Assembly: GCA_963782055.1 (NCBI GenBank)
Contig: CAWAIF010000003.1
Span: forward strand, 5,216,001-5,280,000
Length of the DNA stretch: 64,000 bases
DNA from: an uncultured delta proteobacterium
Lineage (GTDB): Bacteria > Myxococcota_A > Polyangia > Polyangiales > Polyangiaceae
Reading direction: 5' to 3'
Shown: positions 48 through 52,479 of the stretch, one piece after another
How positions within the stretch are numbered: position 1 is the first letter of the stretch
Layout: each line of letters begins with the position of its first letter
Made by a program: the position numbers and the translations under genes
Notes under the pieces: generated by a model
The model's database searches: none
What the model saw: only the letters and a program-made list of their open reading frames with translations
What the model was told of the DNA's origin: nothing

Positions 48-226
48 TGGACGAAGCCGCTGCGCGGCAGCGTGGCTCCGCATCAAGCTCGCTCGCGACC
101 CGGGAGCCCCGCGAGCCGTGTGCGCGCTGACGAGCCCGCCTCGTAGCCCTCGCGTGCCGTGATGCGGGCGATCCTGCGGCGCGCGCCGCCCGCTCGTGGG
201 CGCGCGCGGAGCCGAAGGAGGCCGCG

Positions 227-1072
227 ATGGGTGCGAAGCGAAGACTGCGGGACACGATGAGCGAGGACCTCGCGCTGCGAGGGATGAGCGCCAACACGAT
301 CGCCACGTACGTGGGGTGCGTGCGGCGGTTCGCGCAGTACCACGGGCGGTCGCCGTGCGCGCTGGGGGCGGCGGAGATCCGGACGTTCCTCTTGCACCTG
401 GTGGCGGAGCGCAGGCTGGCGGCGCTGACGGTCAACGTGCACGCGGCCGCGCTGAGGTTTCTCTACGAGGTGACGCTGGAGCGGCCGGAGGCGACGCTGG
501 GGATGGCGCGCATGCGGGTGCCGATGCACGTGCCGGTGGTGCTGACGAGCGCGGAGGTGGCGCGGCTGCTCGCGTCGCTCACGAGCCACAAGCACCGGGC
601 CCTGGTGATGCTCGCCTACGGGGCGGGGCTGCGCGTGAGCGAGGTGTGCAAGCTCCGGGTGGACGACATCGATCCGAAGCGGATGCTCCTGCACGTGCGG
701 CACACCAAGCGCGGGCGTGAGCGCTACGTGATGCTCAGCGCGAGGCTGCTGGCGACGCTGCGCGCGTACTGGAAGGCGTCACGACCCGCAGGACCGCAGC
801 TGTTTCCGGGGCGCGTGCCCGGGACGCTCCTCACGCGCGCGGCCGTCCACCGGGCGATCCTCAAGGCGGCGCGGCGCGCGGGCATCACCCGGCGCGTGTC
901 GCCGCACACGCTGCGCCACAGCTTCGCCACGCACCTGCTCGACGCAGGGACCGACCTTCGCACGTTGCAGGTCTTGCTCGGGCACGCGTCGCTCAGGAGC
1001 ACGATGGCCTACCTGCACGTGAGCACCGCCCGCGTGCAGTCGATTCAGAGCCCCCTCGACGCGCTGCCCTGA
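227..1072 (+). CDS. Tyrosine recombinase (phage integrase family with N-terminal SAM-like domain)
   Basis: YGAGLRVSE, HTLRHSFATHLL and LLGHASLRSTMAY motifs (R-H-R-H-Y). Confidence 0.95.
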   Translation: MGAKRRLRDTMSEDLALRGMSANTIATYVGCVRRFAQYHGRSPCALGAAEIRTFLLHLVAERRLAALTVNVHAAALRFLYEVTLERPEATLGMARMRVPMHVPVVLTSAEVARLLASLTSHKHRALVMLAYGAGLRVSEVCKLRVDDIDPKRMLLHVRHTKRGRERYVMLSARLLATLRAYWKASRPAGPQLFPGRVPGTLLTRAAVHRAILKAARRAGITRRVSPHTLRHSFATHLLDAGTDLRTLQVLLGHASLRSTMAYLHVSTARVQSIQSPLDALP

Positions 1073-1078
1073 GCCCCG

Positions 1079-2038
1079 ATGCACCCGTCGTGTGCGCCCG
1101 CGCGCACGCGCGCGGCGCCCATCGAGCTCGCGGACGTGGTGCGCGCCCACGGCGAGGCCTTCGCCGGCGGCCGCGTGCTGCGTCCCGAGGAGCGGTCGGC
1201 GCTGCGGGCGATCGAGCGATGCCGGACCGCCGCGCTGGGCGGACATCTGGACGTGTGCACCGCGTGCGGGCTCGAGCGACCGTCGTACAACTCGTGCCGC
1301 AACCGGCACTGTCCCAAGTGCCAGTCGCTCGCGCAGGCGCGGTGGGTCGCCACGCGGCTCGAGCGCATTCTGCCCGTGCACTACTTCCACGTCGTCTTCA
1401 CGCTCCCCGCCGAGCTGCGCGCCGTCGCGCGGCGCTCGCGCGCGCGGGTCTTCGACATGCTCTTCGCGAGCGCGGCCGACACGCTGGCCACCCTCGCGCG
1501 GGATCCGAAGTGGCTCGGCGCCGAGCTCGGCGTCACGATGGTCCTGCACACCTGGACGCGCGCGCTGCTCTTCCACCCCCACGTGCACGCCATCGTCACC
1601 GGCGGCGGACTCACCGGCGACGCCGCGCGCTGGGTGCGCGCGCGCCGTCGCTTCCTCTTCCCCGTGCGCGTGATGGGCGTCTCGATGGGCGAGCGCGGCG
1701 TCACCTTCCGCACCAGAGACGGCAAGTCGGTCACCGTCCCGGCCGAGGAGCTGCTCGCGCGCTTCGTCCAGCACGTGCTGCCGCGCGGCTTCGTCAAGAT
1801 CCGCCACTACGGCCTGCACTCCGCCAGCCACGCCACCACGCGCCTCGAGACCGCACGCCGCAGACTGGGTCCGCACGCGGCGCCCGCTGCGCGACCGGTG
1901 CGCCGTGCCGTCGCCGCCGACCTGCTGCTGCGAATCGCGGGCATCGACCTGCGCCGCTGCCCCGCTTGCCACACGCCTGCCCTCGTGCGCACCGCGCTGC
2001 CGGAGCCCCGAGCTCGCGACCCGCCGGGGGCCGCATGA
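1079..2038 (+). pseudogene. IS91-family transposase with a 201-bp in-frame deletion removing YLGRY
   Basis: Zn motif CRNRHCPKC and HUH motif HPHVH present; segment equivalent to 24020-24220 of copy 3 is absent. Confidence 0.85.
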
Positions 2039-2366
2039 TCTCCCCGCGTCGTGTTCCACTGCGCTCGCTCCACGAGTGCGGCGCAGGCCCCTGTCCATCC
2101 GCGCCACGAAAACCCGCCCTCCGAGCACGCACGGCTGCCCGCTGCGCGCTCCGGGACGCCCGCGTCGAGCGCCGTCCCGCCGCCCGCTCCGCACCTCGCG
2201 CACCCGCACGCGTGACCCACACGCCGCCAACTTCCCCATAGGGCTCCGAGGCCACCGCCTCGCCGCTGCCGCGCACCGGCTTCGTCCAACCGTCGATTTC
2301 GCGACCGCGCACCCGCGCCACGCGACCGCCGCCGCGACCCGGCGCGCTCACGCAATCGACTCTTAC

Positions 2367-5441: not shown

Positions 5442-5621
5442 TTGGACGAAGCCGCTGCGCGGCAGCGTGGCTCCGCATCAAGCTCGCTCGCGACCCGGGA
5501 GCCCCGCGAGCCGTGTGCGCGCTGACGAGCCCGCCTCGTAGCCCTCGCGTGCCGTGATGCGGGCGATCCTGCGGCGCGCGCCGCCCGCTCGTGGGCGCGC
5601 GCGGAGCCGAAGGAGGCCGCG

Positions 5622-6467
5622 ATGGGTGCGAAGCGAAGACTGCGGGACACGATGAGCGAGGACCTCGCGCTGCGAGGGATGAGCGCCAACACGATCGCCA
5701 CGTACGTGGGGTGCGTGCGGCGGTTCGCGCAGTACCACGGGCGGTCGCCGTGCGCGCTGGGGGCGGCGGAGATCCGGACGTTCCTCTTGCACCTGGTGGC
5801 GGAGCGCAGGCTGGCGGCGCTGACGGTCAACGTGCACGCGGCCGCGCTGAGGTTTCTCTACGAGGTGACGCTGGAGCGGCCGGAGGCGACGCTGGGGATG
5901 GCGCGCATGCGGGTGCCGATGCACGTGCCGGTGGTGCTGACGAGCGCGGAGGTGGCGCGGCTGCTCGCGTCGCTCACGAGCCACAAGCACCGGGCCCTGG
6001 TGATGCTCGCCTACGGGGCGGGGCTGCGCGTGAGCGAGGTGTGCAAGCTCCGGGTGGACGACATCGATCCGAAGCGGATGCTCCTGCACGTGCGGCACAC
6101 CAAGCGCGGGCGTGAGCGCTACGTGATGCTCAGCGCGAGGCTGCTGGCGACGCTGCGCGCGTACTGGAAGGCGTCACGACCCGCAGGACCGCAGCTGTTT
6201 CCGGGGCGCGTGCCCGGGACGCTCCTCACGCGCGCGGCCGTCCACCGGGCGATCCTCAAGGCGGCGCGGCGCGCGGGCATCACCCGGCGCGTGTCGCCGC
6301 ACACGCTGCGCCACAGCTTCGCCACGCACCTGCTCGACGCAGGGACCGACCTTCGCACGTTGCAGGTCTTGCTCGGGCACGCGTCGCTCAGGAGCACGAT
6401 GGCCTACCTGCACGTGAGCACCGCCCGCGTGCAGTCGATTCAGAGCCCCCTCGACGCGCTGCCCTGA
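5622..6467 (+). CDS. Tyrosine recombinase
   Basis: Protein identical to 227-1072. Confidence 0.95.
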   Translation: MGAKRRLRDTMSEDLALRGMSANTIATYVGCVRRFAQYHGRSPCALGAAEIRTFLLHLVAERRLAALTVNVHAAALRFLYEVTLERPEATLGMARMRVPMHVPVVLTSAEVARLLASLTSHKHRALVMLAYGAGLRVSEVCKLRVDDIDPKRMLLHVRHTKRGRERYVMLSARLLATLRAYWKASRPAGPQLFPGRVPGTLLTRAAVHRAILKAARRAGITRRVSPHTLRHSFATHLLDAGTDLRTLQVLLGHASLRSTMAYLHVSTARVQSIQSPLDALP

Positions 6468-6473
6468 GCCCCG

Positions 6474-7433
6474 ATGCACCCGTCGTGTGCGCCCGCGCGC
6501 ACGCGCGCGGCGCCCATCGAGCTCGCGGACGTGGTGCGCGCCCACGGCGAGGCCTTCGCCGGCGGCCGCGTGCTGCGTCCCGAGGAGCGGTCGGCGCTGC
6601 GGGCGATCGAGCGATGCCGGACCGCCGCGCTGGGCGGACATCTGGACGTGTGCACCGCGTGCGGGCTCGAGCGACCGTCGTACAACTCGTGCCGCAACCG
6701 GCACTGTCCCAAGTGCCAGTCGCTCGCGCAGGCGCGGTGGGTCGCCACGCGGCTCGAGCGCATTCTGCCCGTGCACTACTTCCACGTCGTCTTCACGCTC
6801 CCCGCCGAGCTGCGCGCCGTCGCGCGGCGCTCGCGCGCGCGGGTCTTCGACATGCTCTTCGCGAGCGCGGCCGACACGCTGGCCACCCTCGCGCGGGATC
6901 CGAAGTGGCTCGGCGCCGAGCTCGGCGTCACGATGGTCCTGCACACCTGGACGCGCGCGCTGCTCTTCCACCCCCACGTGCACGCCATCGTCACCGGCGG
7001 CGGACTCACCGGCGACGCCGCGCGCTGGGTGCGCGCGCGCCGTCGCTTCCTCTTCCCCGTGCGCGTGATGGGCGTCTCGATGGGCGAGCGCGGCGTCACC
7101 TTCCGCACCAGAGACGGCAAGTCGGTCACCGTCCCGGCCGAGGAGCTGCTCGCGCGCTTCGTCCAGCACGTGCTGCCGCGCGGCTTCGTCAAGATCCGCC
7201 ACTACGGCCTGCACTCCGCCAGCCACGCCACCACGCGCCTCGAGACCGCACGCCGCAGACTGGGTCCGCACGCGGCGCCCGCTGCGCGACCGGTGCGCCG
7301 TGCCGACGCCGCCGACCTGCTGCTGCGAATCGCGGGCATCGACCTGCGCCGCTGCCCCGCTTGCCACACGCCTGCCCTCGTGCGCACCGCGCTGCCGGAG
7401 CCCCGAGCTCGCGACCCGCCGGGGGCCGCATGA
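6474..7433 (+). pseudogene. IS91-family transposase with the same in-frame deletion
   Basis: Same ATGGGC|GTCTCG junction as copy 1. Confidence 0.85.
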
Positions 7434-7768
7434 TCTCCCCGCGTCGTGTTCCACTGCGCTCGCTCCACGAGTGCGGCGCAGGCCCCTGTCCATCCGCGCC
7501 ACGAAAACCCGCCCTCCGAGCACGCACGGCTGCCCGCTGCGCGCTCCGGGACGCCCGCGTCGAGCGCCGTCCCGCCGCCCGCTCCGCACCTCGCGCACCC
7601 GCACGCGTGACCCACACGCCGCCAACTTCCCCATAGGGCTCCGGGCTCCGAGGCCACCGCCTCGCCGCTGCCGCGCACCGGCTTCGTCCAACCGTCGATT
7701 TCGCGACCGCGCACCCGCGCCACGCGACCGCCGCCGCGACCCGGCGCGCTCACGCAATCGACTCTTAC

Positions 7769-7817: not shown

Positions 7818-8157
7818 GCTCGAAGCGCTCGCCCGCGCCGCTGGGATGCCTCGCGATCATGTGGCGCACGGCTGCCGCCAACGGGATCCGGATGGGCTTC
7901 GCCGAGCAAGGGTCGCCGGCTACGTCAGGACGGGGCAGCGCGAGACCTTGCCCTCAGCAGGGTCAGTGCTCGATGTCGCTGTGCTTCGCCCTGCCGGAGA
8001 AGAGCTGCACCCTTCGACAATCGCCGCGCAGAACATCACATCGTTGTAGATCAACAGGAGCCTTCCGCGTGACGACCCAGTCGGACCGCAACACCGCGCA
8101 GAACGTGAGTCAATTGCGGAGCGATTCCCAGCACCCGACGCCATGGGAGACCGCGGT

Positions 8158-9252
8158 TCAGTCACCGCCAAACGGCGGGTGTGACGCGACCCAGATGTCA
8201 TACTTTCCGCCGCTCCCCGAGCGCTGACTGGTGAAGTAGAGGCTGCAGGAGTCCGGCGAGATCCATCCTGGGATGTCCACACCCTGGTTGGAGGCAAGCT
8301 CCGTGACGACGGCGGCGTTCGCGAACAGGGAGCTCGTCGTGGCACGGTTCGCTACCCAGACGTCGCCTCCTTGATAGTAGTACAGCGTCAGCCCGTCGCC
8401 CGTCACCACGGGATGCGGGACATCCGCGACGCCCGACACGAACACTTGCACCGGCTTGGAGCATGTCCCCTTGCCAGTGCAGTCCGCCTCGAAGAGAGGC
8501 AAGTCAGCGTTGTTGCCCTGCATGGTCAAGTACAACTTACTACCGTCCTCGGTCACATATGGCCACCGATGGAAGACGTTCGGCTGGCTGACGCCTGTCA
8601 CCACCGACGGGGTGCCGAATGGCATCGCGGTGCTCGTGCGCTGGCTCACGAAGATGTCGAAGAATGACGCAGCGTCGAAGTCGTTCGACTCGAAGTACAT
8701 CGTGAGCCCATCCGCCGTAACAGCCGGGGCGTCGTCTATGAGGGAGCCGTTGACGTTGCCGACAGGCGCGACGTTGCCGAAGGCATCGCTCCTTGTCGCG
8801 CGGGTGGCCTGGTAGATGTCCACGCTCTGGTTGGCGTTCGCGCCGCGCGCGAAGTAGATCGTCAGCTCGTCGGGGCTGAGGGAGCCGACCAGCTCGTAGT
8901 CCGCCGTGTTGATGTTCCCGCCCAGCGGCGTCGGTGGCATGAAGGGCTTGCCCAGATCGCACGGCGGCTGGCCCGAGTCGGTCGGCGCGGCGTGGTCACT
9001 TCCGTCCCCACTGGCGTCGAGGTCTGCATCGACCCCCGCGTCGAGGCCCGAGCAGTCGCATGCCGAGTATGCCGTCCCCGCCGCGTTGCAGACCTGGTAC
9101 CCGGTGCAGCTCCCGGCGCCGACGCAACTGACCGACTGGTTCGGGATGCATGCCGGGGACGACGACACGGGGGGATCGCCTCCGCCGCACTGGAACGCGA
9201 GGGCCGCGCCGACCGCCGCGGCGGTGAATAGGACAAGGTACTGTCTCGACAT
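8158..9252 (-). CDS. Putative lipoprotein with TolB/PD40-like beta-propeller repeats (cargo 2)
   Basis: Signal peptide plus Cys, repeated SPDELTIYF / TADGLTMYF / SPDSCSLYF motifs; start chosen at MSRQ. Confidence 0.75.
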   Translation of the reverse strand: MSRQYLVLFTAAAVGAALAFQCGGGDPPVSSSPACIPNQSVSCVGAGSCTGYQVCNAAGTAYSACDCSGLDAGVDADLDASGDGSDHAAPTDSGQPPCDLGKPFMPPTPLGGNINTADYELVGSLSPDELTIYFARGANANQSVDIYQATRATRSDAFGNVAPVGNVNGSLIDDAPAVTADGLTMYFESNDFDAASFFDIFVSQRTSTAMPFGTPSVVTGVSQPNVFHRWPYVTEDGSKLYLTMQGNNADLPLFEADCTGKGTCSKPVQVFVSGVADVPHPVVTGDGLTLYYYQGGDVWVANRATTSSLFANAAVVTELASNQGVDIPGWISPDSCSLYFTSQRSGSGGKYDIWVASHPPFGGD

Positions 9253-9623
9253 GATGCCCTCCATCGACCGGCCGCGATGATGGCTCGTCGCCACAACAAC
9301 ACAGAGCACGATCCCACTCGTGGCGCAAGGCGCGGGCCTGCGCTGCCGGCTGCCGGGGACCTGGTCGTTCCCGGTCCGGCAGCGTTCTCATGGCTGGAGG
9401 CGCGCCACCAAGGCCTCCCCACTGACCGCGACCGCGCGCGTGACGGTGCCGGACGGCAAGGTCATCGTGTCGGCGCGTGTCCGCGCAGCATCCGACCACC
9501 ACGGAGTCCGGCCACGTGGGGAACGCAAGCCTCAGAAGATGTTCGCGCTGCTCTGCGACGAGCCGGAGCCGAAGCTCGCCAAGTTCTTCCCACCGGAATC
9601 GAACTGCGCGTCGCCTCACACCG

Positions 9624-10166
9624 TTAACGTTGAGTCTCACACGCGCGCGTGCAGGCATTGTGCACGGCATCGGCTCCGTCAAGGCAGCGTTGCAGAGCGC
9701 CTCCGCCATTCGCACACCACGCCCGTCGGCAGGTCCGACGAACCGTGCGAATGCACGTGTTGCGATCAGCGTTGTCCGCGGCAACGTCGGCTCTACAGTC
9801 CTCGAGAATCTGGGGTAGGTCTCCAAGGCACACATTCTCGCAGAACGCACGCGCCGCGAAACCACGGCACACTACATGACATTTTTGCGTACGCTCGGTA
9901 GCGACGCTCGTACAACTCCCCACATCTTCGGGCGAACCGCATACGGCGTCACCGACCCGGCAGTATGCGTCGCAGGCGGTACACTCCATGCTCCTGACGA
10001 GCACCGGGCGTGCGCAGGCGTCGAGGCAACCAGCGCGACGCTTCCGCGCCACCAGCGCGTCCCGCTCGGCCATCGGCCTGCAGCCCCATAGACCGAGGGC
10101 GACGACGATAAGCAGCGCCGGAAAGGAGGTGACGCGACGCATCCCAGTTAGCCGCGACATCATCAT
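9624..10166 (-). CDS. Cys-rich hypothetical lipoprotein (cargo 2)
   Basis: Hydrophobic N-terminus with LWGC, Cys-rich, directly follows the Sel1 gene. Confidence 0.45.
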   Translation of the reverse strand: MMMSRLTGMRRVTSFPALLIVVALGLWGCRPMAERDALVARKRRAGCLDACARPVLVRSMECTACDAYCRVGDAVCGSPEDVGSCTSVATERTQKCHVVCRGFAARAFCENVCLGDLPQILEDCRADVAADNADRNTCIRTVRRTCRRAWCANGGGALQRCLDGADAVHNACTRACETQR

Positions 10167-10169
10167 GCG

Positions 10170-11621
10170 TCATGGATCGGTGTTGTCCGTGGCGCGCCGG
10201 CACCCGATGGTGAGCCCTTGATCACACGCCTTCGCATACAGCCGTTGAGCAGCTACCGCATCCGGTCGCGTTCCGACGCCGACCGCCGTGAGCCGCGCCA
10301 AAGTCAAGCACGCAGTCGACTCGCCCTCATTGCAGGCCAGATCGTCAAATGATACCGCGATGCTGGCGTCTCGTGAAGTTCCGATGCCAGCTTCGTAGAC
10401 GCGGCCCACGTTGGCGCAAGCTTGCCCGAGTCCCTCCTGGCACGCCTTGATGTAGAGCTCTACGGCGCGTGCAGCGAACCCGCATCCTGGTGTCCTCTCG
10501 TAGACTTGCGCCAAGTCGTTGCAGCCTCCCGCTCCGTCGCGGCCGCCATTCAAGCAGGCTCGTTTGTAGAGGCGAAGCGCCGTTGCCTCATCCCGCTCGA
10601 CGCCGAACCCAACTTGGTAGAGCTGCGCAAGGTCCTCGCATCCTACCGGATCGTCATGAGCGCACGCGTGTCGATATAGCTCCGCGGCGCGGACTGGATT
10701 GAAGCTCACCGTAATGCCATGCTGGTAGGCAACGCCCAGGTTGACGCAGGCGCTCTCACCGCCCCCATGACCACACGCTCGCCGGTATAACTTGACTGCG
10801 CGCGCCGTGTCGACGGGTACACCGCGGCCGCTGTCATACAGCCACCCTAGATTGCCACATCCAACCATGTCACCCCCCGCGCATCCTCGCCAATAGCTCG
10901 TCGCCGCGCGAGCGTAATCCTGGATACCACCGCGCCCGCGTTCGAAGAGGGCGCCCAGGTTGCTGCAGGCGCGAGCCAGACCCCTGCCGCAAAGCGAATC
11001 GTAGAGGAGTGCCGCTTGCGGCACATCGCGACTGTCATCGTCGTAGAGCCACGCGAGTTGGAGGCAGGCCTCGACGTCGCCGGCGTTGCATGTAGCCTGC
11101 TGGATGGTGATGGCGTGATCAACGTCTCGCGGGACACCAAGCCCCCCCGCATAATCAATTCCCAAACGCCTACATCCAACGATCTGTCCCCCGTAGCAAG
11201 CACGTTGATTGAGGCGCGCGGCGCGTTTGAGATCGGTGCTCACACCAATGCCGTTCGCGCAGAGCCACCCCAGGTCCAGACAGCCTTCGGCGTCGCCAAG
11301 CTGGCACCCCCGCTCGTCGAGTTCGGCCGCCTGCTTATCGTCTCGACTGACGACAATACCTTGTAGATAAAGCGATCCCGCCGCCGTACAACTCCCTGCG
11401 ACGCCGCGGGAGCATTCCAACTGGAGAATGGTGAGGGAAGGGGCGCGCGGGCCGCGCGCCGCGGTGCTAGCAGTTCCCCTGCAGCATCCAGACGCATCGG
11501 GGTTCTCGCCGGACCGACAGAGCGAGCTACATGTCACCGCCTGTCCCTGAGCGGCTGAAGCACCGAGCAACGGAAGGAGAAATGCCAGGGGCCAAAGGGG
11601 AGGGGAACAGCGCATTCTCAC
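10170..11621 (-). CDS. Secreted Sel1-like repeat protein (cargo 2)
   Basis: Repeated ACxNLGxLYxxGxGVxxDxxxAxxLYxRAC units, signal peptide. Confidence 0.9.
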   Translation of the reverse strand: MRMRCSPPLWPLAFLLPLLGASAAQGQAVTCSSLCRSGENPDASGCCRGTASTAARGPRAPSLTILQLECSRGVAGSCTAAGSLYLQGIVVSRDDKQAAELDERGCQLGDAEGCLDLGWLCANGIGVSTDLKRAARLNQRACYGGQIVGCRRLGIDYAGGLGVPRDVDHAITIQQATCNAGDVEACLQLAWLYDDDSRDVPQAALLYDSLCGRGLARACSNLGALFERGRGGIQDYARAATSYWRGCAGGDMVGCGNLGWLYDSGRGVPVDTARAVKLYRRACGHGGGESACVNLGVAYQHGITVSFNPVRAAELYRHACAHDDPVGCEDLAQLYQVGFGVERDEATALRLYKRACLNGGRDGAGGCNDLAQVYERTPGCGFAARAVELYIKACQEGLGQACANVGRVYEAGIGTSRDASIAVSFDDLACNEGESTACLTLARLTAVGVGTRPDAVAAQRLYAKACDQGLTIGCRRATDNTDP

Positions 11622-11860: not shown

Positions 11861-11960
11861 GCGCATAGGAAATCCTAGCGCGGTCGGGCGCGAAAGTTTA
11901 CGGAATCCATCTTATGCGAAGTGGGGCCGTCCGGTGTCACTGGAAGGACGGACCAGGGTG
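11861..11960 (+). repeat. Array repeat R3 (intact 100 bp, variant A)
   Basis: Full repeat; dif-like 28-mer at 11895-11922. Confidence 0.98.
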
Positions 11961-12552
11961 GACTATGGCATTGCTCCCTACGTGAAGACTGCCCCGCTCC
12001 AGATGCTAGGCGCCATGCTCATGCTGGCGTGCACGTCGTCTCCGTCGTCGGCTCCTCCTGGCGACGGCGGCGGTGACGGCGGGGCGGACGTTGGGGCAGC
12101 GTGTGATCCGACGGCCCTCGGCGGCGTCCGCCAAGACCAGTTGGAGATGGTCCCCGAGAGAGCGTAGCGTCCTTCGACATCGCCGAGTCCGCTGCGGCGG
12201 ACGGGACCGGGCATCGGTCTAGCAGACAATCTAGACCTCATCCTGGGTGAGGCACTTCCGCTTCACGACCTCGGCGAGGTCGGGCATCTTCTTGATCTCC
12301 CCCACGTTCGAGCGATGCCTACCCTCTTGCCAAGTGGCAGGGGTACGCTTCTTCCCTTCGAGGCTCGTCTGCTCCTTGCAGCAGCCGTCCTCTTTGACGC
12401 GGAAGGTCCACCCCTGGGGAAGAGGTGGCGTCGGTTCGATGCTCAAGCCTTAGCTCGGCGATCGACGGTTCATGCGGACCACCTACAACGGGCGTCTTCT
12501 CCGTGCCGAGGGGTAGCGTTTGCGCCATGTCGATGCTAACTTTCGCACCAGG

Positions 12553-22335: not shown

Positions 22336-22386
22336 GCGCATAGGAAATCCTAGCGCGGTCGGGCGCGAAAGTTTACGGAATCCATC
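22336..22386 (+). repeat. Array repeat R4, left half (variant A), interrupted by Int-IS91 copy 3
   Basis: Matches the first 51 bp of the repeat. Confidence 0.97.
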
Positions 22387-22566
22387 TTGGACGAAGCCGC
22401 TGCGCGGCAGCGTGGCTCCGCATCAAGCTCGCTCGCGACCCGGGAGCCCCGCGAGCCGTGTGCGCGCTGACGAGCCCGCCTCGTAGCCCTCGCGTGCCGT
22501 GATGCGGGCGATCCTGCGGCGCGCGCCGCCCGCTCGTGGGCGCGCGCGGAGCCGAAGGAGGCCGCG

Positions 22567-23412
22567 ATGGGTGCGAAGCGAAGACTGCGGGACACGATGA
22601 GCGAGGACCTCGCGCTGCGAGGGATGAGCGCCAACACGATCGCCACGTACGTGGGGTGCGTGCGGCGGTTCGCGCAGTACCACGGGCGGTCGCCGTGCGC
22701 GCTGGGGGCGGCGGAGATCCGGACGTTCCTTTTGCACCTGGTGGCGGAGCGCAGGCTGGCGGCGCTGACGGTCAACGTGCACGCGGCCGCGCTGAGGTTT
22801 CTCTACGAGGTGACGCTGGAGCGGCCGGAGGCGACGCTGGGGATGGCGCGCATGCGGGTGCCGATGCACGTGCCGGTGGTGCTGACGAGCGCGGAGGTGG
22901 CGCGGCTGCTCGCGTCGCTCACGAGCCACAAGCACCGGGCCCTGGTGATGCTCGCCTACGGGGCGGGGCTGCGCGTGAGCGAGGTGTGCAAGCTCCGGGT
23001 GGACGACATCGATCCGAAGCGGATGCTCCTGCACGTGCGGCACACCAAGCGCGGGCGTGAGCGCTACGTGATGCTCAGCGCGAGGCTGCTGGCGACGCTG
23101 CGCGCGTACTGGAAGGCGTCACGACCCGCAGGACCGCAGCTGTTTCCGGGGCGCGTGCCCGGGACGCTCCTCACGCGCGCGGCCGTCCACCGGGCGATCC
23201 TCAAGGCGGCGCGGCGCGCGGGCATCACCCGGCGCGTGTCGCCGCACACGCTGCGCCACAGCTTCGCCACGCACCTGCTCGACGCAGGGACCGACCTTCG
23301 CACGTTGCAGGTCTTGCTCGGGCACGCGTCGCTCAGGAGCACGATGGCCTACCTGCACGTGAGCACCGCCCGCGTGCAGTCGATTCAGAGCCCCCTCGAC
23401 GCGCTGCCCTGA
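22567..23412 (+). CDS. Tyrosine recombinase
   Basis: Protein identical to copies 1 and 2. Confidence 0.95.
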   Translation: MGAKRRLRDTMSEDLALRGMSANTIATYVGCVRRFAQYHGRSPCALGAAEIRTFLLHLVAERRLAALTVNVHAAALRFLYEVTLERPEATLGMARMRVPMHVPVVLTSAEVARLLASLTSHKHRALVMLAYGAGLRVSEVCKLRVDDIDPKRMLLHVRHTKRGRERYVMLSARLLATLRAYWKASRPAGPQLFPGRVPGTLLTRAAVHRAILKAARRAGITRRVSPHTLRHSFATHLLDAGTDLRTLQVLLGHASLRSTMAYLHVSTARVQSIQSPLDALP

Positions 23413-23419
23413 GCCCCCG

Positions 23420-24577
23420 ATGCACCCGTCGTGTGCGCCCGCGCGCACGTGCGCGGCGCCCATCGAGCTCGCGGACGTGGTGCGCGCCCACGGCGAGGCC
23501 TTCGCCGGCGGCCGCGTGCTGCGTCCCGAGGAGCGGTCGGCGCTGCGGGCAATCGAGCGATGCCGGACCGCCGCGCTGGGCGGACATCTGGACGTGTGCA
23601 CCGCGTGCGGGCTCGAGCGACCGTCGTACAACTCGTGCCGCAACCGGCACTGTCCCAAGTGCCAGTCGCTCGCGCAGGCGCGGTGGGTCGCCACGCGGCT
23701 CGAGCGCATTCTGCCCGTGCACTACTTCCACGTCGTCTTCACGCTCCCCGCCGAGCTGCGCGCCGTCGCGCGGCGCTCGCGCGCGAGGGTCTTCGACATG
23801 CTCTTCGCGAGCGCGGCCGACACGCTGGCCACCCTCGCGCGGGATCCGAAGTGGCTCGGCGCCGAGCTCGGCGTCACGATGGTCCTGCACACCTGGACGC
23901 GCGCGCTGCTCTTCCACCCCCACGTGCACGCCATCGTCACCGGCGGCGGACTCACCGGCGACGCCGCGCGCTGGGTGCGCGCGCGCCGTCGCTTCCTCTT
24001 CCCCGTGCGCGTGATGGGCGCCCTCTTTCGCGGCAAGATGCTCGCCGCTCTCGAGCGCGCCCACGCGCGCGGCCTCGTCGACCTGGGCGGCGTCGACCTG
24101 CTGGCGCTCCGACGCAAGGCCTGGGTCGTCTACGCCAAGCGACCCTTCGGCGGCCCCGCTCAGGTCATCCGCTACCTCGGTCGCTACACTCACCGCGTCG
24201 GCATCTCCAACCACCGCTTCGTCTCGATGGGCGAGCGCGGCGTCACCTTCCGCACCAGAGACGGCAAGTCGGTCACCGTCCCGGCCGAGGAGCTGCTCGC
24301 GCGCTTCGTCCAGCACGTGCTGCCGCGCGGCTTCGTCAAGATCCGCCACTACGGCCTGCACTCCGCCAGCCACGCCACCACGCGCCTCGAGACCGCACGC
24401 CGCAGACTGGATCCGCACGCGCCCGCTGCGCGACCGGAGCGCCGTGCCGTCGCCGCCGACCTGCTGCTGCGAATCGCGGGCATCGACCTGCGCCGCTGCC
24501 CCGCTTGCCACACGCCTGCCCTCGTGCGCACCGCGCTGCCCGAGCCCCGAGCTCGCGCCCCGCCGAGGGCCGCATGA
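23420..24577 (+). CDS. IS91-family (Y2 HUH) rolling-circle transposase, full length
   Basis: CRNRHCPKC, HPHVH, YLGRY and KIRHYGL motifs. Confidence 0.93.
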   Translation: MHPSCAPARTCAAPIELADVVRAHGEAFAGGRVLRPEERSALRAIERCRTAALGGHLDVCTACGLERPSYNSCRNRHCPKCQSLAQARWVATRLERILPVHYFHVVFTLPAELRAVARRSRARVFDMLFASAADTLATLARDPKWLGAELGVTMVLHTWTRALLFHPHVHAIVTGGGLTGDAARWVRARRRFLFPVRVMGALFRGKMLAALERAHARGLVDLGGVDLLALRRKAWVVYAKRPFGGPAQVIRYLGRYTHRVGISNHRFVSMGERGVTFRTRDGKSVTVPAEELLARFVQHVLPRGFVKIRHYGLHSASHATTRLETARRRLDPHAPAARPERRAVAADLLLRIAGIDLRRCPACHTPALVRTALPEPRARAPPRAA

Positions 24578-24905
24578 TCTCCCCGCGTCGTGCTCCACTG
24601 CGTTCGCTCCACGAGTGCGGCCCAGGCCCCGGTCCATCCGCGCCACCAAAAACCGCCCCCCGAGCACGCACGGCTGCCCGCTGCGCGCTCCGGGACGCCC
24701 GCGTCGAGCGCCGTCCCGCCGCCCGCTCCGCACCTCGCGCACCCGCACGCGTGACCCACACGCCGCCAACTTCCCCATAGGGCTCCGAGGCCACCGCCTC
24801 GCCGCTGCCGCGCACCGGCTTCGTCCAACCGTCGATTTCGCGACCGCGCACCCGCGCCACGCGACCGCCGCCGCGACCCGGCGCGCTCACGCAATCGACT
24901 CTTAC

Positions 24906-24954
24906 TTATGCGAAGTGGGGCCGTCCGGTGTCACTGGAAGGACGGACCAGGGTG
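24906..24954 (+). repeat. Array repeat R4, right half
   Basis: Identical 49-mer. Confidence 0.97.
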
Positions 24955-27658
24955 GCTGCCGGATGGAACCACGATTACGACGGTACCATCCGCTGATCCA
25001 CGCTACGGGTTCGGCTCGGCCTACGTGTCGTCGTCGACGGCATCGATCGGTGGTCACTCGGTGGCCACCAGTACCTCAATTCAGGAGCAGTTGAGCGATG
25101 CGTCGGACCCGCGCACCCTGACGGGACAGACGACGTACGGCACGGTCCTGATCAATTCGACGCCGTACACCGTGTCACAGGTGTTTAGCGCGGGCCCCCC
25201 TGCTACTGTCACCTACACCACGCCCGCAGGTCGTACCGCCACGCTGACGCTGGATGCCAACGACCGCGTGACGCAAGTCCAGGTGGGTGGCGACGTGCCC
25301 GGCCACCCTGGCTCGAGCCTAAATGCGACCAATATCGGCTACGACTCCGGCCGCCTCGGAACAATCAGCCAGGGTTCTACGCCAACGACACTAACCACGA
25401 CGTACCACTACAATTCGTCGACGGGCTTCCTCGATTCGGTCGATGGCCCCTTCGGATCCCACGTGTTCAACAATCCAACCCAGGACGCGCTCGGGCGGCC
25501 CTCGCATGTGTCGCTCCCGGGAGGAAACGTCGTGGGCCTGACGTATGACACCGCGGGCCACGTGAATTCGGTGACGGTGCCCCAGGGCTACGTCCATGGG
25601 TACGGGTTCAACGCCGACGACCTCCTGGGCTCGCACGCCCCACCGAGCGCCTCGCCCGGCGGGCCGACCAACTATGGCTACTCCCCGGAGCGCCTCCTGT
25701 CTTACGTCGAACCACCGGGCACGGTGGTCAGCTACGATCACGACGCTGACGGCCGCATCTCCAGCATCTCCTACCCGAGTCCGGTTGACGGGACGATGCG
25801 GCAGACCTCGTTCGGCTACTATGCCGACAACGACCCGCAGACTGGACACGCCAAGGGACACGTCTCCACGATCGACGACACCGACGTGAACCTGACCTAC
25901 AAGTACAACGGCCCTCTCCTGACCTCCGAGGAGTTCCAGGTCCCGAACTACGGCGCGACCTTCGACCACACCGTCCACTACGGCTACGGCGACCACCTCC
26001 CCCGCGTCACCTCGCGCGACATCGACGGTGCCGCCGGCTTCACCTTCACCTACGACGACCTGAACGGCGCCGCCAACAACGGAGGCGTCGGAGACGCCGA
26101 CGGCTACCTCTGGCGGATCACGGGCGGCGGACAGGACTACACCGTCACGCGCGCCGCAAACGGGATGATCGCCAGCCCGACGGTCGGGGCACTGAGCGAG
26201 GGCTACGAGTACGACCTGAACGGCGCGCTCACCAGGTACTGGATGAAGCACGGCCAGACCACGCTCTACGAGGCAGACTACACGCGCAACCACGCGGGCA
26301 GCGAGCGGGTCCAGAGCGAGACGGAGATCGTGAACGGCATCTCGTGCGCGATCGGCTACGACTACTACCCGGACAACCGCCTGCACACCGTCACCAACTC
26401 CTGCGGCGGCGGCGGGTCCTACAGCTACAACCCCGACGGCACGATGTCCGGGCCGACGCACGACGCGCAGGACCGGACCATCGACGACGGCCCCACCCAC
26501 TTCGCCTACGCGGCCGACGGATCGACCTACAGCCAGTCCGGATCGAACTACCTCGTCAACTACCGCTACGATCCCGCCGGCAACCTGCTGCACTTCGACC
26601 GCAACGACGGCGGCAACGCGCGCACCTACGACTACCGGGTCGACGGCCTGAACCGGCGGATCGCCCGGACGACGCAGGACCAGCGCGGATGGCTCTACGA
26701 CGGCGACCGCATCATCGGGGAGGTGGACGGCACGGGCCGCGTGGTCGCCCACTTCGCCTACTTCACCCACGCCAACGTCCCCGACCTGATGCTGCGCCTG
26801 GACTGGGACAACAACTGGATCCTCTACCGCATCGTGACCGACCAGCTCGGCACCGTGAAGGCGGTGATCCGCACCTCCGACGGCGCGGTGATGGAGCTGT
26901 ACTCCTACAGCGACGCCTGGGGTGCGATGAGCGCCGTCTACGACGGCAACCTCCAGTGGCTCAACGGGGGCTCCCCGACCTTCCAGCCGTTCGGGTTTGC
27001 AGGCGGGCTGGTGGACTACTATGCTGGTACCCTGCGCTACGGCGCGCGAGACTACAACCCCTGGCAGAGGAGGTGGCTGACGCAGGATCCGATCGGGCAG
27101 GCTGGCGGGCTGTACGTGTATGGGTACTGCCATGACGATCCGGTGAACTGCGCAGATCCCTCTGGGCGTTTCGGCGTGGGTGGCCTTTTGGATCTGTACA
27201 ACGCCACGGTCGGCTCGTTTCTTGGAAAGATCAATGCCGCGGAGGCAACGGCGGTCGGGCTCGCGTTCGGTGCGGCAGGCGTCGCCACCAATGTTGTTGA
27301 CGGAAAGGAGTACGGCGTTGACTACTCCGTGGACATAGGAAATAACGCAATCGAATTTAAGGGGCATCCGGTGGTTGGCGCATTTACGCCGGCCGTCACA
27401 CTCGGAAACGTAATCTGCTACGAGAATGCCTCGCCTGGCCCATACACGCAAGCTCACGAGAGACAGCACACCTATCAGGCTGAAACGCTCGGGGATCTCT
27501 ACTTGCCGGCGCAAGCCGACTCTCAGGTGCTAGGATTTGTTAGTAGTTTTTTTGATAGCAGCCACACGTACAGCGGCTTAAACGACAGAGTTCACGGGCC
27601 CGGAAATCTCTTGGAGACGGGGCCGTCGATGGTTGATCCGCAACCGTGGCCGTGGTGA
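24908..27658 (+). CDS. 5'-truncated RHS/YD-repeat toxin with HExxH C-terminal domain, in frame with an ATG inside the repeat (cargo 4)
   Basis: YD repeats, RHS core YGARDYNP...WLTQDPIG...DPSG, C-terminal AHERQHTYQ. Confidence 0.85.
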   Translation: MRSGAVRCHWKDGPGWLPDGTTITTVPSADPRYGFGSAYVSSSTASIGGHSVATSTSIQEQLSDASDPRTLTGQTTYGTVLINSTPYTVSQVFSAGPPATVTYTTPAGRTATLTLDANDRVTQVQVGGDVPGHPGSSLNATNIGYDSGRLGTISQGSTPTTLTTTYHYNSSTGFLDSVDGPFGSHVFNNPTQDALGRPSHVSLPGGNVVGLTYDTAGHVNSVTVPQGYVHGYGFNADDLLGSHAPPSASPGGPTNYGYSPERLLSYVEPPGTVVSYDHDADGRISSISYPSPVDGTMRQTSFGYYADNDPQTGHAKGHVSTIDDTDVNLTYKYNGPLLTSEEFQVPNYGATFDHTVHYGYGDHLPRVTSRDIDGAAGFTFTYDDLNGAANNGGVGDADGYLWRITGGGQDYTVTRAANGMIASPTVGALSEGYEYDLNGALTRYWMKHGQTTLYEADYTRNHAGSERVQSETEIVNGISCAIGYDYYPDNRLHTVTNSCGGGGSYSYNPDGTMSGPTHDAQDRTIDDGPTHFAYAADGSTYSQSGSNYLVNYRYDPAGNLLHFDRNDGGNARTYDYRVDGLNRRIARTTQDQRGWLYDGDRIIGEVDGTGRVVAHFAYFTHANVPDLMLRLDWDNNWILYRIVTDQLGTVKAVIRTSDGAVMELYSYSDAWGAMSAVYDGNLQWLNGGSPTFQPFGFAGGLVDYYAGTLRYGARDYNPWQRRWLTQDPIGQAGGLYVYGYCHDDPVNCADPSGRFGVGGLLDLYNATVGSFLGKINAAEATAVGLAFGAAGVATNVVDGKEYGVDYSVDIGNNAIEFKGHPVVGAFTPAVTLGNVICYENASPGPYTQAHERQHTYQAETLGDLYLPAQADSQVLGFVSSFFDSSHTYSGLNDRVHGPGNLLETGPSMVDPQPWPW

Positions 27659-40706: not shown

Positions 40707-40896
40707 GCTCGATGTCGCTGTGCTTCGCCCTGCCGGAGAAGAGCTGCACCCTTCGACAATCGCCGCGCAGAACATCACATCGTTGTAGATCAACAGGAGC
40801 CTTCCGCGTGACGACCCAGTCGGACCGCAACACCGCGCAGAACGTGAGTCAATTGCGGAGCGATTCCCAGCACCCGACGCCATGGGAGACCGCGGT

Positions 40897-41991: not shown

Positions 41992-42362
41992 GATGCCCTC
42001 CATCGACCGGCCGCGATGATGGCTCGTCGCCACAACAACACAGAGCACGATCCCACTCGTGGCGCAAGGCGCGGGCCTGCGCTGCCGGCTGCCGGGGACC
42101 TGGTCGTTCCCGGTCCGGCAGCGTTCTCATGGCTGGAGGCGCGCCACCAAGGCCTCCCCACTGACCGCGACCGCGCGCGTGACGGTGCCGGACGGCAAGG
42201 TCATCGTGTCGGCGCGTGTCCGCGCAGCATCCGACCACCACGGAGTCCGGCCACGTGGGGAACGCAAGCCTCAGAAGATGTTCGCGCTGCTCTGCGACGA
42301 GCCGGAGCCGAAGCTCGCCAAGTTCTTCCCACCGGAATCGAACTGCGCGTCGCCTCACACCG

Positions 42363-49298: not shown

Positions 49299-51020
49299 TC
49301 AGGCGGCGGGGGGGTCGTCTGCGGCGAGGTCGAGGAGGTCGGTCGGATCGCGGGCGCGGGCAGGTGCGGGGGCTTCGGCGGGGAGGTCGAGAGCGCGGAG
49401 GATGCGGACCACGGCGGCGTCGTCGGTGATGACGGCGAGGGGACGGAGGCGGCCCCCGCAGGTCGGGCACTGGAGCACGTCGATCTCGAAGGTGCGGCGG
49501 AGCAGGCGCGGCCAGTCGATGCGGGATGTCGCTGCGTAGAGAAGGCCGCGGCGAAGGCGCTCCCAGTGGCCCACGGCGACGACGTTGGGTGCGAGACGGC
49601 GCACGTGGAGGTCTGCGGCGGCCGCGGGTGCGGCGGGCTCGGGCGCCGGTGGCGGGACCGGGAGAGGGAGGGCGAGCTGGCCCGCGGGCGGCGCGCTCGT
49701 GGTGCTGGCCGCCCCCGCGGGATCGCGGCGCACGGGGTCGGGCCTCTCTGCCGCATGTGTGGTGTCGCGATGCTCCCGCCTCTCGATGGGCTGCCCGGGT
49801 TTCGCGGGGACGAGGGGTCGCGGAGGACGCGGACGCCCGCAGGACGGGGCGGACGGCTCACGCGGCCTGGGGACCACGAGCTTCCGCCACGACAATCGGG
49901 GGGCGAGGACACCGTGGTAGCGGACAAGTGGGTAGCGCGGCGGCGGGACGAGCGCGGCGACGCGGGCGAGGAGCTCCACCGGAGTGAGGATCATGTGCTT
50001 CGCCTTGCCCGCGCGCGGCTGCTTGACGCGGTAGGCGACGCGGCCGTCGCGCAGGAGGCGTAGGCGCGAGAGGGCGAGCGCGGGGCGCAGGGCGTAGCGG
50101 CAGAGGCGCTCGCGGGCGAGGTCGTCCCGGACGCGGACGCCGGCGTGGAGGTTGAAGCCGGTGTCCTCCACCGCGCGGTGAGCCATGGCGGGGGCGGCTG
50201 CGTCGTCGTCGTCGTCGTCGCCGGGGTCGATCGCGAGCTTCAGCACCTTCGGACGCTGCATCGCGAGAGCCACGCAGGCGTCGAGGGCGCTCGGCTCGAC
50301 GTCGAGGTCCACCGGATCCTCGGAGAGGTGACCGTGGCGGCGGAGCCACGCGATGGCGCGACGGCTGACGGCGGTGACGAGCTGCTGCAGCTCGGCGCGG
50401 GTGGGCATCGGCAAGGGCACGAAGCCGAGGGAGCCGTCCGGCTCGCGCAGGAAGACGCCGTCCATGACGATGGTGTGGAAGTGGACGTTGAGGTTGAGGC
50501 TTCCCCCGAAGCGCTGGACGCAGGTGACCGCGCCGCTGGCGACCTGATCGAACCCCGCTGCGCGGGCGCGGCGGCGGTGGCTGGCGAAGATGGCGTCCGC
50601 GAAGATGCGCGCGAGCGCGCGGAGCACCACGGGGTCGAAGGCGGCGAGGCGGCGGAGCTCGTACGGAAGGGACAGGACGTACTGGCGGAGGGGGACGTCC
50701 GGGAGGACGCGGTCGACCAGGTGGGCGGCGGTGTTCGCCATGCGGCGTCCCGCGCAGCTCGGGCAGACGCCGCGGCCCTTGCAGGAGAACGCGACGAGCA
50801 GATCGTGGCCGCAGGCGTCGCAATGCGCGCGCAGGAAGCCGTGGCGAAAGACGCCGCACTTCAGGTAGCCGCGGAGATCCTGCTCGACGTAGCGGGGGAC
50901 GGGCTTGCTGTAGCTCTCGCGCGCCCAGCGGAGGAAGGTCTGCAGGCCGGCGCGGACGAGGCGGTAGAGCGGCGTCTCGGTAGGCTGCCGAGGCGCGTAC
51001 GGCGCGGCGAGGGACGACAC
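49299..51020 (-). CDS. ISCR/IS91-family rolling-circle (HUH, single Tyr) transposase
   Basis: CDAC...FSCKGRGVCPSC Zn domain, QRFGGSLNLNVHFH (HUH), RERLCRYALRP, LVRYHGVLAP; GTG start inferred. Confidence 0.9.
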   Translation of the reverse strand: MSSLAAPYAPRQPTETPLYRLVRAGLQTFLRWARESYSKPVPRYVEQDLRGYLKCGVFRHGFLRAHCDACGHDLLVAFSCKGRGVCPSCAGRRMANTAAHLVDRVLPDVPLRQYVLSLPYELRRLAAFDPVVLRALARIFADAIFASHRRRARAAGFDQVASGAVTCVQRFGGSLNLNVHFHTIVMDGVFLREPDGSLGFVPLPMPTRAELQQLVTAVSRRAIAWLRRHGHLSEDPVDLDVEPSALDACVALAMQRPKVLKLAIDPGDDDDDDAAAPAMAHRAVEDTGFNLHAGVRVRDDLARERLCRYALRPALALSRLRLLRDGRVAYRVKQPRAGKAKHMILTPVELLARVAALVPPPRYPLVRYHGVLAPRLSWRKLVVPRPREPSAPSCGRPRPPRPLVPAKPGQPIERREHRDTTHAAERPDPVRRDPAGAASTTSAPPAGQLALPLPVPPPAPEPAAPAAAADLHVRRLAPNVVAVGHWERLRRGLLYAATSRIDWPRLLRRTFEIDVLQCPTCGGRLRPLAVITDDAAVVRILRALDLPAEAPAPARARDPTDLLDLAADDPPAA

Positions 51021-51249
51021 CCGCCGTCCGTTGCGCGCCCCGTGCCAGCGCGCGCGGCCGCAAATTCGCCGCGCTCGAGGCGGGAGGGGGTGGCCCCGGA
51101 CAGTCAGGCCGGACACCCCGGACACCCGAGCCAAGCGAGGGGGCCCCTGAAGGGCGGCTCGGAGATCCGGACGAGCGCGGGTGCCTTCGAGCGGAGCCGT
51201 CGGTGCCGGCGGCGTGCTCCCCGCTCGCGGGCGGGTTAAGACTCCATCG

Positions 51250-52479
51250 ATGCCTCCTCCCAAGCGCCCTGCCCTTCGACCGGTCGAGACCATCGTCGTG
51301 CCCGACGAGAAGCACGGCAGAGTCCTGGTGCTGCGCGACACGCAAGGGGTCGCGAAGGGGCACGCGGTCCTGCCGCCGCAGCTCATCCCCATCGTCGCGC
51401 GCTTCACCGGGAGCCGCACCTGCGCCCAGATCGCGAAGGAGGCGGAGGGCGATCTGGGGATGGAGGTGCCCGTCGACGCCGTCGAGGACCTGGTGCGGCA
51501 GCTCGACGAGGCCCTCTTCCTGGTGGGCGACACCTTCGAGCGCGCGCTGGAGCAGGTGCGCGACGCCTTCGGGCGCGCGCCCGTGCGGGAGGCGTCGCAC
51601 GCCGGGGCCGCCTATCCCGGCGATCGCGTGGAGCTTGCAGAGTACATCGATCGCCGGTGCGTCGAGCGCGCCGCGCCGGACGCGCCGGCGGGGCGGATGG
51701 TGGGGCTGGTCTCCCCGCACATCGACCCGTGGCGCGGGGCGGTGGGCTACGGGCACGCGTACGGATCGCTCGCGGCCGCGCTCCCCGCGGACGTGGACAC
51801 CTTCGTCGTGCTGGGGACGTCGCACGCGCCCATGCAGGAGCCCTTCGCGCTGTGCCGCAAGGCGTACGACACGCCCTTCGGCCCGATGCCCGTGGACGAG
51901 GCGATGGTGGACGCCCTCGCCGGCGCGGCGGACTTCGACCCCTACCGCGACGTGCTCAACCACAAGCGCGAGCACTCCATCGAGTTCCAGGCGGTCTTCC
52001 TCAAGCACGTGCTGGGCGATCGCGAGGCGCGGGTGGTGCCCATCCTGGCGGGTCTCGGCGAGGAGCAGTCGCGCCGGAAAGATCCCCGCAAGACGAAGGC
52101 CGTGGCGAAGTTCCTGGACGCCCTGCGCGAGCTCGTCGCCAAGCGCGGTGACCGCGTCGTGGTGGTCGCCGGCGCGGATCTGGCGCACGTCGGGCCGCGC
52201 TTCGGCGACGCGAAGCCGCACGACGCCGAGCAGCGCCGCGCGCTGGAGAAGCGCGACCGCGCGTCACTCGATCTGGCGCTGGGCCGCGACGCGCGCGCCT
52301 TCTGGGAGCACGTCGCCGAAGACCTCGACCAGCGCCGCGTGTGCGGCCTCGCCCCCGTCTTCAGCCTGCTCGACGTCCTGCCCGAGGCGAAGCGCGGGTC
52401 GCTGCTGCACTACGAGCAGACGGTGGACGACGAGGACGGCTCGATCGTCAGCCACGCCGCCGTCGGCTTCTACCGCTGA
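51250..52479 (+). CDS. amrB: AmmeMemoRadiSam system protein B (MEMO1 family)
   Basis: HAGAAYP, SPHID, LGTSH, EHSIEFQ, ADLAHVG and VCG motifs. Confidence 0.88.
   Translation: MPPPKRPALRPVETIVVPDEKHGRVLVLRDTQGVAKGHAVLPPQLIPIVARFTGSRTCAQIAKEAEGDLGMEVPVDAVEDLVRQLDEALFLVGDTFERALEQVRDAFGRAPVREASHAGAAYPGDRVELAEYIDRRCVERAAPDAPAGRMVGLVSPHIDPWRGAVGYGHAYGSLAAALPADVDTFVVLGTSHAPMQEPFALCRKAYDTPFGPMPVDEAMVDALAGAADFDPYRDVLNHKREHSIEFQAVFLKHVLGDREARVVPILAGLGEEQSRRKDPRKTKAVAKFLDALRELVAKRGDRVVVVAGADLAHVGPRFGDAKPHDAEQRRALEKRDRASLDLALGRDARAFWEHVAEDLDQRRVCGLAPVFSLLDVLPEAKRGSLLHYEQTVDDEDGSIVSHAAVGFYR

Follow-up and report, generated by a model that had tools for sequence, protein, structure and literature searches.

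An integrase-bearing IS91-family element with ends predicted to fold into a single-stranded attachment site, inserted at dif-like repeat cores in a myxobacterium

We analysed a 64,000-nucleotide stretch of DNA, hereafter the window, from an uncultured delta proteobacterium of the Polyangiaceae (assembly GCA_963782055.1, contig CAWAIF010000003.1; G000:C3:5216001-5280000 in our numbering), and found in it three copies of an element that carries a tyrosine recombinase gene (int) and an IS91-family transposase gene (tnp). The joined ends of this element are predicted to fold into a single-stranded attachment site (attP), and its copies interrupt a repeat whose core resembles the host dif site. From these patterns we consider it likely that the transposase, of the histidine-hydrophobe-histidine (HUH) type, makes a single-stranded DNA (ssDNA) circle and that the element's own recombinase integrates it. 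A first-pass annotation of this DNA had already proposed an HUH-made circle integrated by a tyrosine recombinase at the border between spacer and arm, and that proposal is supported here. The intact copy (copy 3; 22387..24905, + strand; 2,519 bp) is the reference throughout.

The left end of copy 3 (22387..22412, +) would form the outer arm of the attP, with an inverted copy of itself near the right end (24803..24828, +) as the partner strand, and joining the ends makes 25 of these 26 positions complementary. Beside this outer stem, an inner stem (24831-24843 with 24887-24899) pairs at 11 of 13 positions; its 5' half shares the segment 24829..24843 (+) with the internal centre strand, of which the first 3 nt complement the target spacer in most relatives, and its 3' half runs on through an unpaired centre or bulge (24900-24905) that reaches the right end (24887..24905 in all, +). 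The centre is thereby 2 nt against 6 nt (CC versus TCTTAC); stem counts and centre, as first annotated, proved exact on recount. With DNA parameters and 200 dinucleotide shuffles, the joined-end fold scored z = -6.9 on the + strand and z = -8.1 on the - strand, vs. -2.1 to +0.2 for each end alone, and on the minus strand G.T pairs lengthen the inner stem to give a single long hairpin.

To place these ends in their family, we assembled loci from scans of genomes and of metagenomes, taking from each the best 80 of about 600 matches, and from three plasmid regions. The int gene lies upstream of tnp in 178/188 transposase loci, and 7 of the other 10 start <600 nt from the edge of the locus; with later loci, the set came to 212 int + tnp loci in 147 clusters. 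Flanking sequence sufficed for a test of the arms in 81 clusters: the left-arm motif occurs in 69 of them, the internal inverted arm in 70, and the two together in 62 (shuffled windows, 0 and 4). For arm pairing we kept 75/147 clusters, dropping those with a motif score ≤12, and Watson-Crick pairs at arm positions 1, 2, 4, 7 and 10 were found in 60, 63, 68, 58 and 56 clusters vs. 41, 41, 38, 38 and 31 expected. Disjoint nearest-relative pairs, chosen to lessen kinship effects, gave 27 double-sided arm changes in 35 independent comparisons, 21 of them from one Watson-Crick pair to another. Left-arm positions 3, 5 and 6 are invariant in 73-75/75 clusters, and the internal partner of position 6 varies in 27. 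An inner stem scoring ≥9 was present in 67/88 clusters vs. 1/88 when shuffled, with pair counts inflated by the choice of the stem on its pairing; the consensus of its inner part reads as a TT(A/T)TC arm. The three bases beside the outer arm pair best across a 5-nt bulge (99/231 vs. 37-72 at other offsets), and the flank beyond begins with T and T, at 0.62 and 0.45. With stems that are conserved and covarying in relatives and an in silico fold of this strength, the suggestion of a foldable attP resembling that of the phage CTXphi holds up well. Head-to-tail tandems (L302/L319, L306/L313 and L458 in genome G415; L353/L355 in G419; L381 in G426; L049) carry joined-end junctions in chromosomes, with a variable dinucleotide.

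Which strand folds is indicated by the arm positions that do not pair: 54 would be G.T wobbles on the bottom strand vs. 5 on the top, with 90 other mismatches. For IS91 itself, the only inserting form described is an ssDNA circle of the bottom strand (PMC13181058, section 11), and the wobble counts and the stronger minus-strand fold agree with a circle of that strand. By these sequence measures the relevant fold strand is the bottom one.

The target in the window is an array repeat of ~100 bp. Its two interrupted halves flank copy 3 at 22336..22386 (+) and 24906..24955 (+), and between them they hold one arm (22370-22380), a 6-nt spacer (22381-22386) and a second arm (24906-24916), the first of which we take to be XerD-type and the second XerC-type on the presumed polarity of dif. 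An empty repeat at 11861..11962 (+) serves as the reference target, and further empty copies start at 28568, 40607, 47904 and 49163. Its 28-bp core (11895-11922) differs at 5/28 positions from a single chromosomal site, C3:3558740, which lies 628 bp from the polarity peak of the FtsK-orienting polar sequences (KOPS) and within the bin of the cumulative GC-skew maximum; these two positions identify it as the host dif, of which the array-repeat core is, on sequence, a real mimic. As first annotated, the 6-nt spacer immediately precedes copies 2 and 3, and the right ends of the three copies in the window all meet the same arm. Across the genome there are 13 right junctions: beyond 11 of them the sequence continues in the repeat arm (in one case after an additional T), beyond 1 in a diverged repeat and beyond 1 in a XerD-type arm. 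Of 14 left junctions, one of which comes from a 77%-identical relative, 11 directly follow the spacer and 3 border on a group II intron that entered the left arm at its first base. With 19 intact empty cores (≤2 mismatches) in the 7.58-Mb genome, 11/13 right junctions in the repeat arm do not reflect chance. A second myxobacterium (G359) has a locus with three dif-like repeats, two of them empty and unlike each other in sequence, the third occupied at the border seen here; G004 is alike. Dif-like repeats in other myxobacteria (L283 in G359, L295 in G004, and L286) have their own spacers and flanks, and some are empty and some filled.

Comparison of empty with filled sites in G000, G359 and G426 shows no target site duplication. 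Such a duplication had been considered and was rejected: the left triplet and dinucleotide differ from the right side of the same copy, the same dinucleotide being found in 11/32, 15/27, 2/15, 8/10 and 2/4 copies. A target tetranucleotide of the CTTG/GTTC/GTCC kind adjoining the right end is absent in this genome, where the right flanks read TTAT, and the flanks vary in relatives. A top-strand CTTG at the left junction was also rejected as an IS91 target, being on the wrong strand and missing from the empty site.

A dif mimic as target invites the explanation that the transposase makes the folded circle and the host XerC, with XerD in a structural role, integrates it at dif-like sites while Int is accessory, as in integrative mobile elements exploiting Xer recombination (IMEX). 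This explanation, which we regard as improbable, draws on a target that has two different arms and only five mismatches to host dif, on a crossover at the XerC-type arm border, on the XerC and XerD candidates that are present in this genome, on the one off-repeat insertion that resumes in a XerD-type arm, and on the finding, in the part of the CTX study available, that XerC alone exchanges one strand pair (PMC3442271). It is opposed by an Int that is intact and conserved family-wide, by an outer arm kept across phyla rather than matched to the dif of each host, by relatives that use attC-like, REP-like (repetitive extragenic palindromic) and symmetric cores, and by a real dif that is unoccupied: C3:3558740 is empty, and the element copies lie 0.83-2.77 Mb away from it. 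The IMEX-like label given at first pass therefore survives for the folded attP and not for use of the chromosomal dif or for the absence of an integrase, as the element encodes a recombinase with its catalytic residues in place and with signs of purifying selection. The accompanying idea that the left end mimics the arm it displaces did not stand, the left arm being conserved across phyla whatever the target.

Int (22567..23412, +; 281 aa; PF00589 and PF13495) has the residues R136, K161, H227, R230, H253 and Y262. The catalytic R, K, H, R, H and Y are kept in 108-114/116 open frames (125 examined; Tyr in 108/116), and median dN/dS is 0.147 over 75 pairs. Judged by its residues, Int is catalytically intact, and it is under purifying selection. 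Its best NCBIfam match is the integron integrase TIGR02249 (199 bits, under the cut-off of 265), and it lacks the IntI insertion (a gap of about 40 aa against IntI4, 2a3v). In the accessible part of their work, Smyshlyaev et al. likewise report that IS91-borne recombinases lack this insertion and that they are the closest relatives of IntI (10.1101/542381). The transposase, Tnp (23420..24577, +; 385 aa), matches NF033538 with 391 bits (cut-off 125) as well as PF04986 and PF14319; it is of the Y2 type, with its HUH motif at H166/H168/H170 and tyrosines at Y252 and Y256, all of which are unchanged across an alignment of 27 homologues. The transposase has at least 8,000 homologues, with up to 88 matches in one genome. 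Four shallow contig sets contained no end-to-start circle joint, at a cover of the ends too thin to be informative; in public data, none of the 6 runs listed contained half of the junction words, and no RNA data set was among those listed.

The first two bases of the left arm (22387-22388 in copy 3) suggest that circle formation and integration are separate reactions. They differ among otherwise near-identical copies in G419, G426, G415 and G417, with 7-8 forms among sibling copies in both G419 and G426. In six multi-copy sets, 13/16 distinct non-modal left dinucleotides occur among the right-flank dinucleotides of the same family and genome (6.6 expected, p about 1e-5 under a uniform null); intron-hit left ends were dropped, as were tandem junctions in the right-flank counts, and in the copy-by-copy comparison of left and right sides ten regions of G419 contributed nothing because their right ends are interrupted. 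In G415, for example, TA and CT occur as variants on the left, and TA, CT and TC on the right. A repeat with 407 matches in G426, a Roseovarius metagenome-assembled genome, is one target of the local element. Its 31 empty alleles (first 30 loci) all read AA after the border, and three filled copies read AA on the right and AA, AA and TG on the left, so that the left pair arrives with the element. The next four bases of the left arm are nearly invariant (bottom strand GT(T/C)C; GTCC at 22389-22392 in copy 3, inside the left end) and stand beside a short subterminal palindrome (22396-22408), an arrangement in agreement with what PMC13181058 describes for IS801, IS1294 and IS1294b, both in the tetramers at the terminus and in the layout of terIS. 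On sequence, the left end is of the terIS type, a tetramer with one adjoining palindrome, and from the dinucleotide matches we infer cleavage at that tetramer. The variable dinucleotide would then place the circle-making cut 2 nt from the integration crossover and imply two chemistries. The carried dinucleotide is a new observation of this analysis.

These left-end features also bear on two other explanations. Y1 transposases use folds as base-pairing guides. Were the transposase both to make and to insert the circle, with the fold as such a guide, Int would be left only to resolve cointegrates and tandems; the tetramer and palindrome of IS91 type at the left end suit this scheme, the tandem copies in G415, G419 and G426 are possible substrates for a resolvase, and canonical IS91 is described, in the accessible text, as inserting an ssDNA circle with TnpA alone (PMC13181058). 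We nevertheless think it unlikely: no common target tetramer lies 5' of the bottom-strand crossover, the homology that exists lies 3' of it, where tyrosine recombinases need homology, and a reversed circle-making cut would leave the carried dinucleotide at the right, where the one informative empty site shows it at the left.

The other explanation is that Int excises and integrates the element as IntI does attC cassettes, and that the transposase just replicates the circle from CCCATAG. This is the core of a conserved internal motif (24768..24783, +, upstream of the internal arm) present in 91/97 clusters and in 0/97 shuffled windows, 0-40 nt before the internal arm. The motif may be a transposase-binding site of an oriIS-like kind. 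A nick at this motif was considered and rejected, as no bases are conserved past it. It lies about 120-140 nt inside the right end rather than at the terminus, which fits a cassette-like element, as do the resemblance of the ends to attC R boxes, the ability of the integrated right end still to fold with the target arm, and the relationship of Int to IntI, reported in the accessible part of 10.1101/542381. Excision by Int at the arm border would, however, fix the left dinucleotide in each lineage, and the many forms in G419 and G426 track right flanks instead; the invariant tetramer 2 nt inside the left end would also have no explanation. We therefore give cassette-like excision very little credence.

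Under the favoured reading, of a transposase-made circle integrated by Int, target choice appears to be steered by bases inside the fold. In 69 clusters, the target base is complementary to the internal strand 54 times at position -1, 46 times at -2 and 37 times at -3, where about 20 would be expected, and complementarity is at background from -4 to -7; in independent pairs this homology is seen at -1 in 7/15 and at -2 in 7/16, vs. 2 of 14-18 at more distant positions. When the element's own end calls for another base than the internal strand does, targets match the latter (10/11 non-tandem rows in one cluster and 8/9 in another, from per-copy tables). In multi-copy sets the target-derived triplet varies while the right end stays constant, so the triplet is not a duplication.

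Taken together, we propose four steps. The IS91-type transposase would nick the bottom strand 2 nt outside the right end, and rolling-circle synthesis would displace that strand until termination after GT(T/C)C, 2 nt inside the left end, so that the sealed ssDNA circle carries two bases of donor flank. The circle junction is predicted in silico to fold into an attP made of an outer arm, a centre of ≤3 paired nt and a ~5-nt bulge, an inner arm and a variable loop. The element's own integron-like Int would then swap one strand pair with an arm/6-nt spacer/arm core at the spacer/arm border, the last 3 nt of the target spacer pairing with the internal strand of the fold and aiding site choice; the favoured core in this genome would be the dif mimic inside the array repeats. 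Finally, by analogy with CTX and integrons, replication would resolve the pseudo-Holliday junction.

Several points weigh against this reading. The arm motif models were trained on the same loci that they score, and in the 35 independent pairs 80 one-sided arm changes exceed the 27 double-sided ones. In many clades the outer arm has no likeness to the target arm it replaces. Homology at -3 is weak in independent pairs (3/14), and the internal triplet of the focal element itself asks for CGG where its usual target ends in ATC, so that none of the 3 bases match; its crossover base matches its own end instead, and the G359 element is likewise mismatched at the crossover base. A single filled copy is informative for assigning the dinucleotide to the left rather than to the right. 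Directly 5' of the presumed ori nick lie four bases of target DNA that, unlike in IS91, are not GTTC-like, so that the reading does not account for how TnpA would find the nick. Conservation of the distal target arm is no more than moderate when 131 unique left flanks are compared (A at -7/-8 in 0.42-0.51), and the arm-6-arm geometry beyond myxobacteria is read from this flank logo and from per-copy tables. A clostridial set of three copies shares 9 left-flank nt and misfits a simple definition of the end. These clostridial copies (L217-L219, G041) have palindromic target arms 2 nt off the usual register.

Survey of flanks beyond this genome, suggested at first pass as a search for dif-like targets, yielded them mainly in myxobacterial relatives; elsewhere the cores are palindromic, attC-like or REP-like. 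Ten acidobacterial copies lie in near-palindromic arm-6-arm sites, and the acidobacterial genome G042 contains no match to a degenerate dif pattern. Of three copies on Mesorhizobium plasmids, one occupies a perfect dyad, presumably of the kind found at the ends of recombinase-in-trio (RIT) elements. Alphaproteobacterial sets target REP-like hairpins, and several single loci resume in an attC-like GTTRRRY (all of these site labels were assigned by eye). No common tetranucleotide adjoins these targets and the stems are conserved and covarying, neither of which tells against the original proposal. We see it as an even chance that the IS91-family members with int make up a transposon class of their own, widespread and distinct, in which an HUH circle is cut 2 nt off-register with two donor bases and an own IntI relative integrates the folded junction into cores that belong to other recombinases (dif mimics, attC, RIT-like and REP-like dyads), steered by 3 internal nt.

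The other two window copies, copy 1 (48..2366, +) and copy 2 (5442..7768, +; same target border), share a 199-bp deletion in tnp that takes out the catalytic tyrosines of the transposase. The same deletion is found in four copies in all (the other two at C3:5201827 and 6330256), all at different sites, which suggests mobilisation in trans, or duplication after the deletion. Copy 1 has an odd left junction, with a group II intron, itself interrupted by an insertion sequence (IS), sitting one base into its left arm just outside and at the start of the window; the left half of the repeat lies directly beyond the intron, so copy 1 used the same border, and we ruled it out as an off-target insertion, the copy being intron-split. 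Class C group II introns insert after hairpins. Both in this genome and in the Mesorhizobium plasmid copies, group II introns enter the left arm just past the small palindrome (window 1-47 and upstream; C3:6186554-6187897 and 2272360-2274253; L193-L196), and at one locus the segment from the left arm to the internal arm appears to be rearranged. Beyond the array, 58174-60093 encodes a reverse transcriptase/maturase of a group II intron (TIGR04416).

The ~100-bp repeat has 37 left-end matches genome-wide and, upstream of them, no conserved tetramer and only a purine (35/37). At three loci it forms the downstream end of a Y2 transposase resembling those of insertion sequence common regions (ISCR): one in the window (49299..51533, - strand), which ends just before the last repeat and belongs to the array context rather than to the element, and two at C3 near 2.74 and 4.41 Mb. 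Solo repeats lie between unrelated cargo (a restriction-modification system, Rhs pieces, Sel1, SocA). Some of the cargo between repeats, with PD40 and Sel1 genes, is duplicated exactly over long stretches, the window region 7968-11606 matching 40707-45800, and three diverged ~3-kb units lie at 28.7-37 kb.

A full-text literature search, with ISfinder, TnPedia, most subscription papers and supplements outside its reach, returned no account of ends, targets or mechanism for int-bearing IS91 elements, and the mechanism has probably not been described before. We take ISWz1 to be an int-bearing member of the IS91 family. Accessible text reports that ISWz1 forms circles in a tet(X) resistance region (PMC11322121) and that a copy of ISShvi3 lies beside an attC site (PMC9229058). 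The mechanism proposed here gives a testable role to the recombinase carried by some IS91-family elements and joins IS91 rolling-circle transposition, CTX folded-attP integration and integron attC recombination. As the closest relatives of IntI are these recombinases, a folded substrate bears on how integrons came by single-strand recombination; the element, if the mechanism is true, would be a living model for how that recombination arose, and swapping three internal bases might re-set its choice of target.

ISfinder recognises an IS91-family subgroup with an upstream tyrosine recombinase. With the IS91 family (IS91, IS801, IS1294, IS1294b) the element shares a Y2 transposase that passes NF033538, the lack of target duplication and, going by the available text, the GTTC/GTCC terminus tetramer and subterminal palindrome at the left end (PMC13181058). 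It differs in targeting an arm-spacer-arm core where IS91 targets a tetranucleotide, in a crossover 2 nt from the inferred terminus cut, in an extra foldable segment of ~100 nt at the ori end, and in a second open reading frame that encodes an intact recombinase rather than Orf121; recombinases carried by IS91-family members are reported in the accessible part of 10.1101/542381.

With IMEX of the CTXphi type the element has in common two inverted sites that form a single-stranded attP with a looped overlap region (accessible parts of PMC5357621 and PMC3442271) and, in tandems, a joined-end junction kept in chromosomes. The same sources describe two CTX attP sites about 90 nt apart that fold together (PMC5357621), and one strand exchange at the XerC side in which strands are ligated only if the bases next to the cut pair, while the overlap is without homology on its far side (PMC3442271). 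In our data, homology confined to the bases beside cleavage is seen family-wide and is absent for the focal element at its usual target. CTX has no integrase, uses host XerCD at the chromosomal dif and holds both attP halves contiguously in the phage genome, whereas the element would gain its attP only on end joining, has its own recombinase and exists in dozens of copies per genome with the real dif empty. It is thus not an IMEX: its own recombinase is intact, dif is empty, and among relatives the cores used include attC-like, REP-like and palindromic ones.

Integron attC sites resemble the predicted attP in being a folded bottom-strand site with an unpaired centre and a variable terminal structure (in silico for the element), and attC recombination proceeds, in the accessible text, through the folded bottom strand with replicative resolution (PMC8946536). 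The element differs in being autonomous and without cargo cassettes, in an Int that has no IntI insertion and scores below the TIGR02249 cut-off, in ssDNA that apparently comes from a dedicated HUH enzyme, and in its 3-nt homology and 5-nt bulge. SEs (strand-biased circularizing integrative elements) are likewise tyrosine recombinase elements with strand-biased circles, although they are not described, in the accessible accounts, as encoding an IS91 HUH transposase. Their gene set differs from that of the element. The element thus falls outside IMEX, which use the chromosomal dif and lack an integrase, outside canonical IS91, which targets a tetranucleotide, and outside integrons, whose integrase has the IntI insertion, and is, as far as its sequence tells, like CTX and attC cassettes at integration and like IS91 at circle formation.

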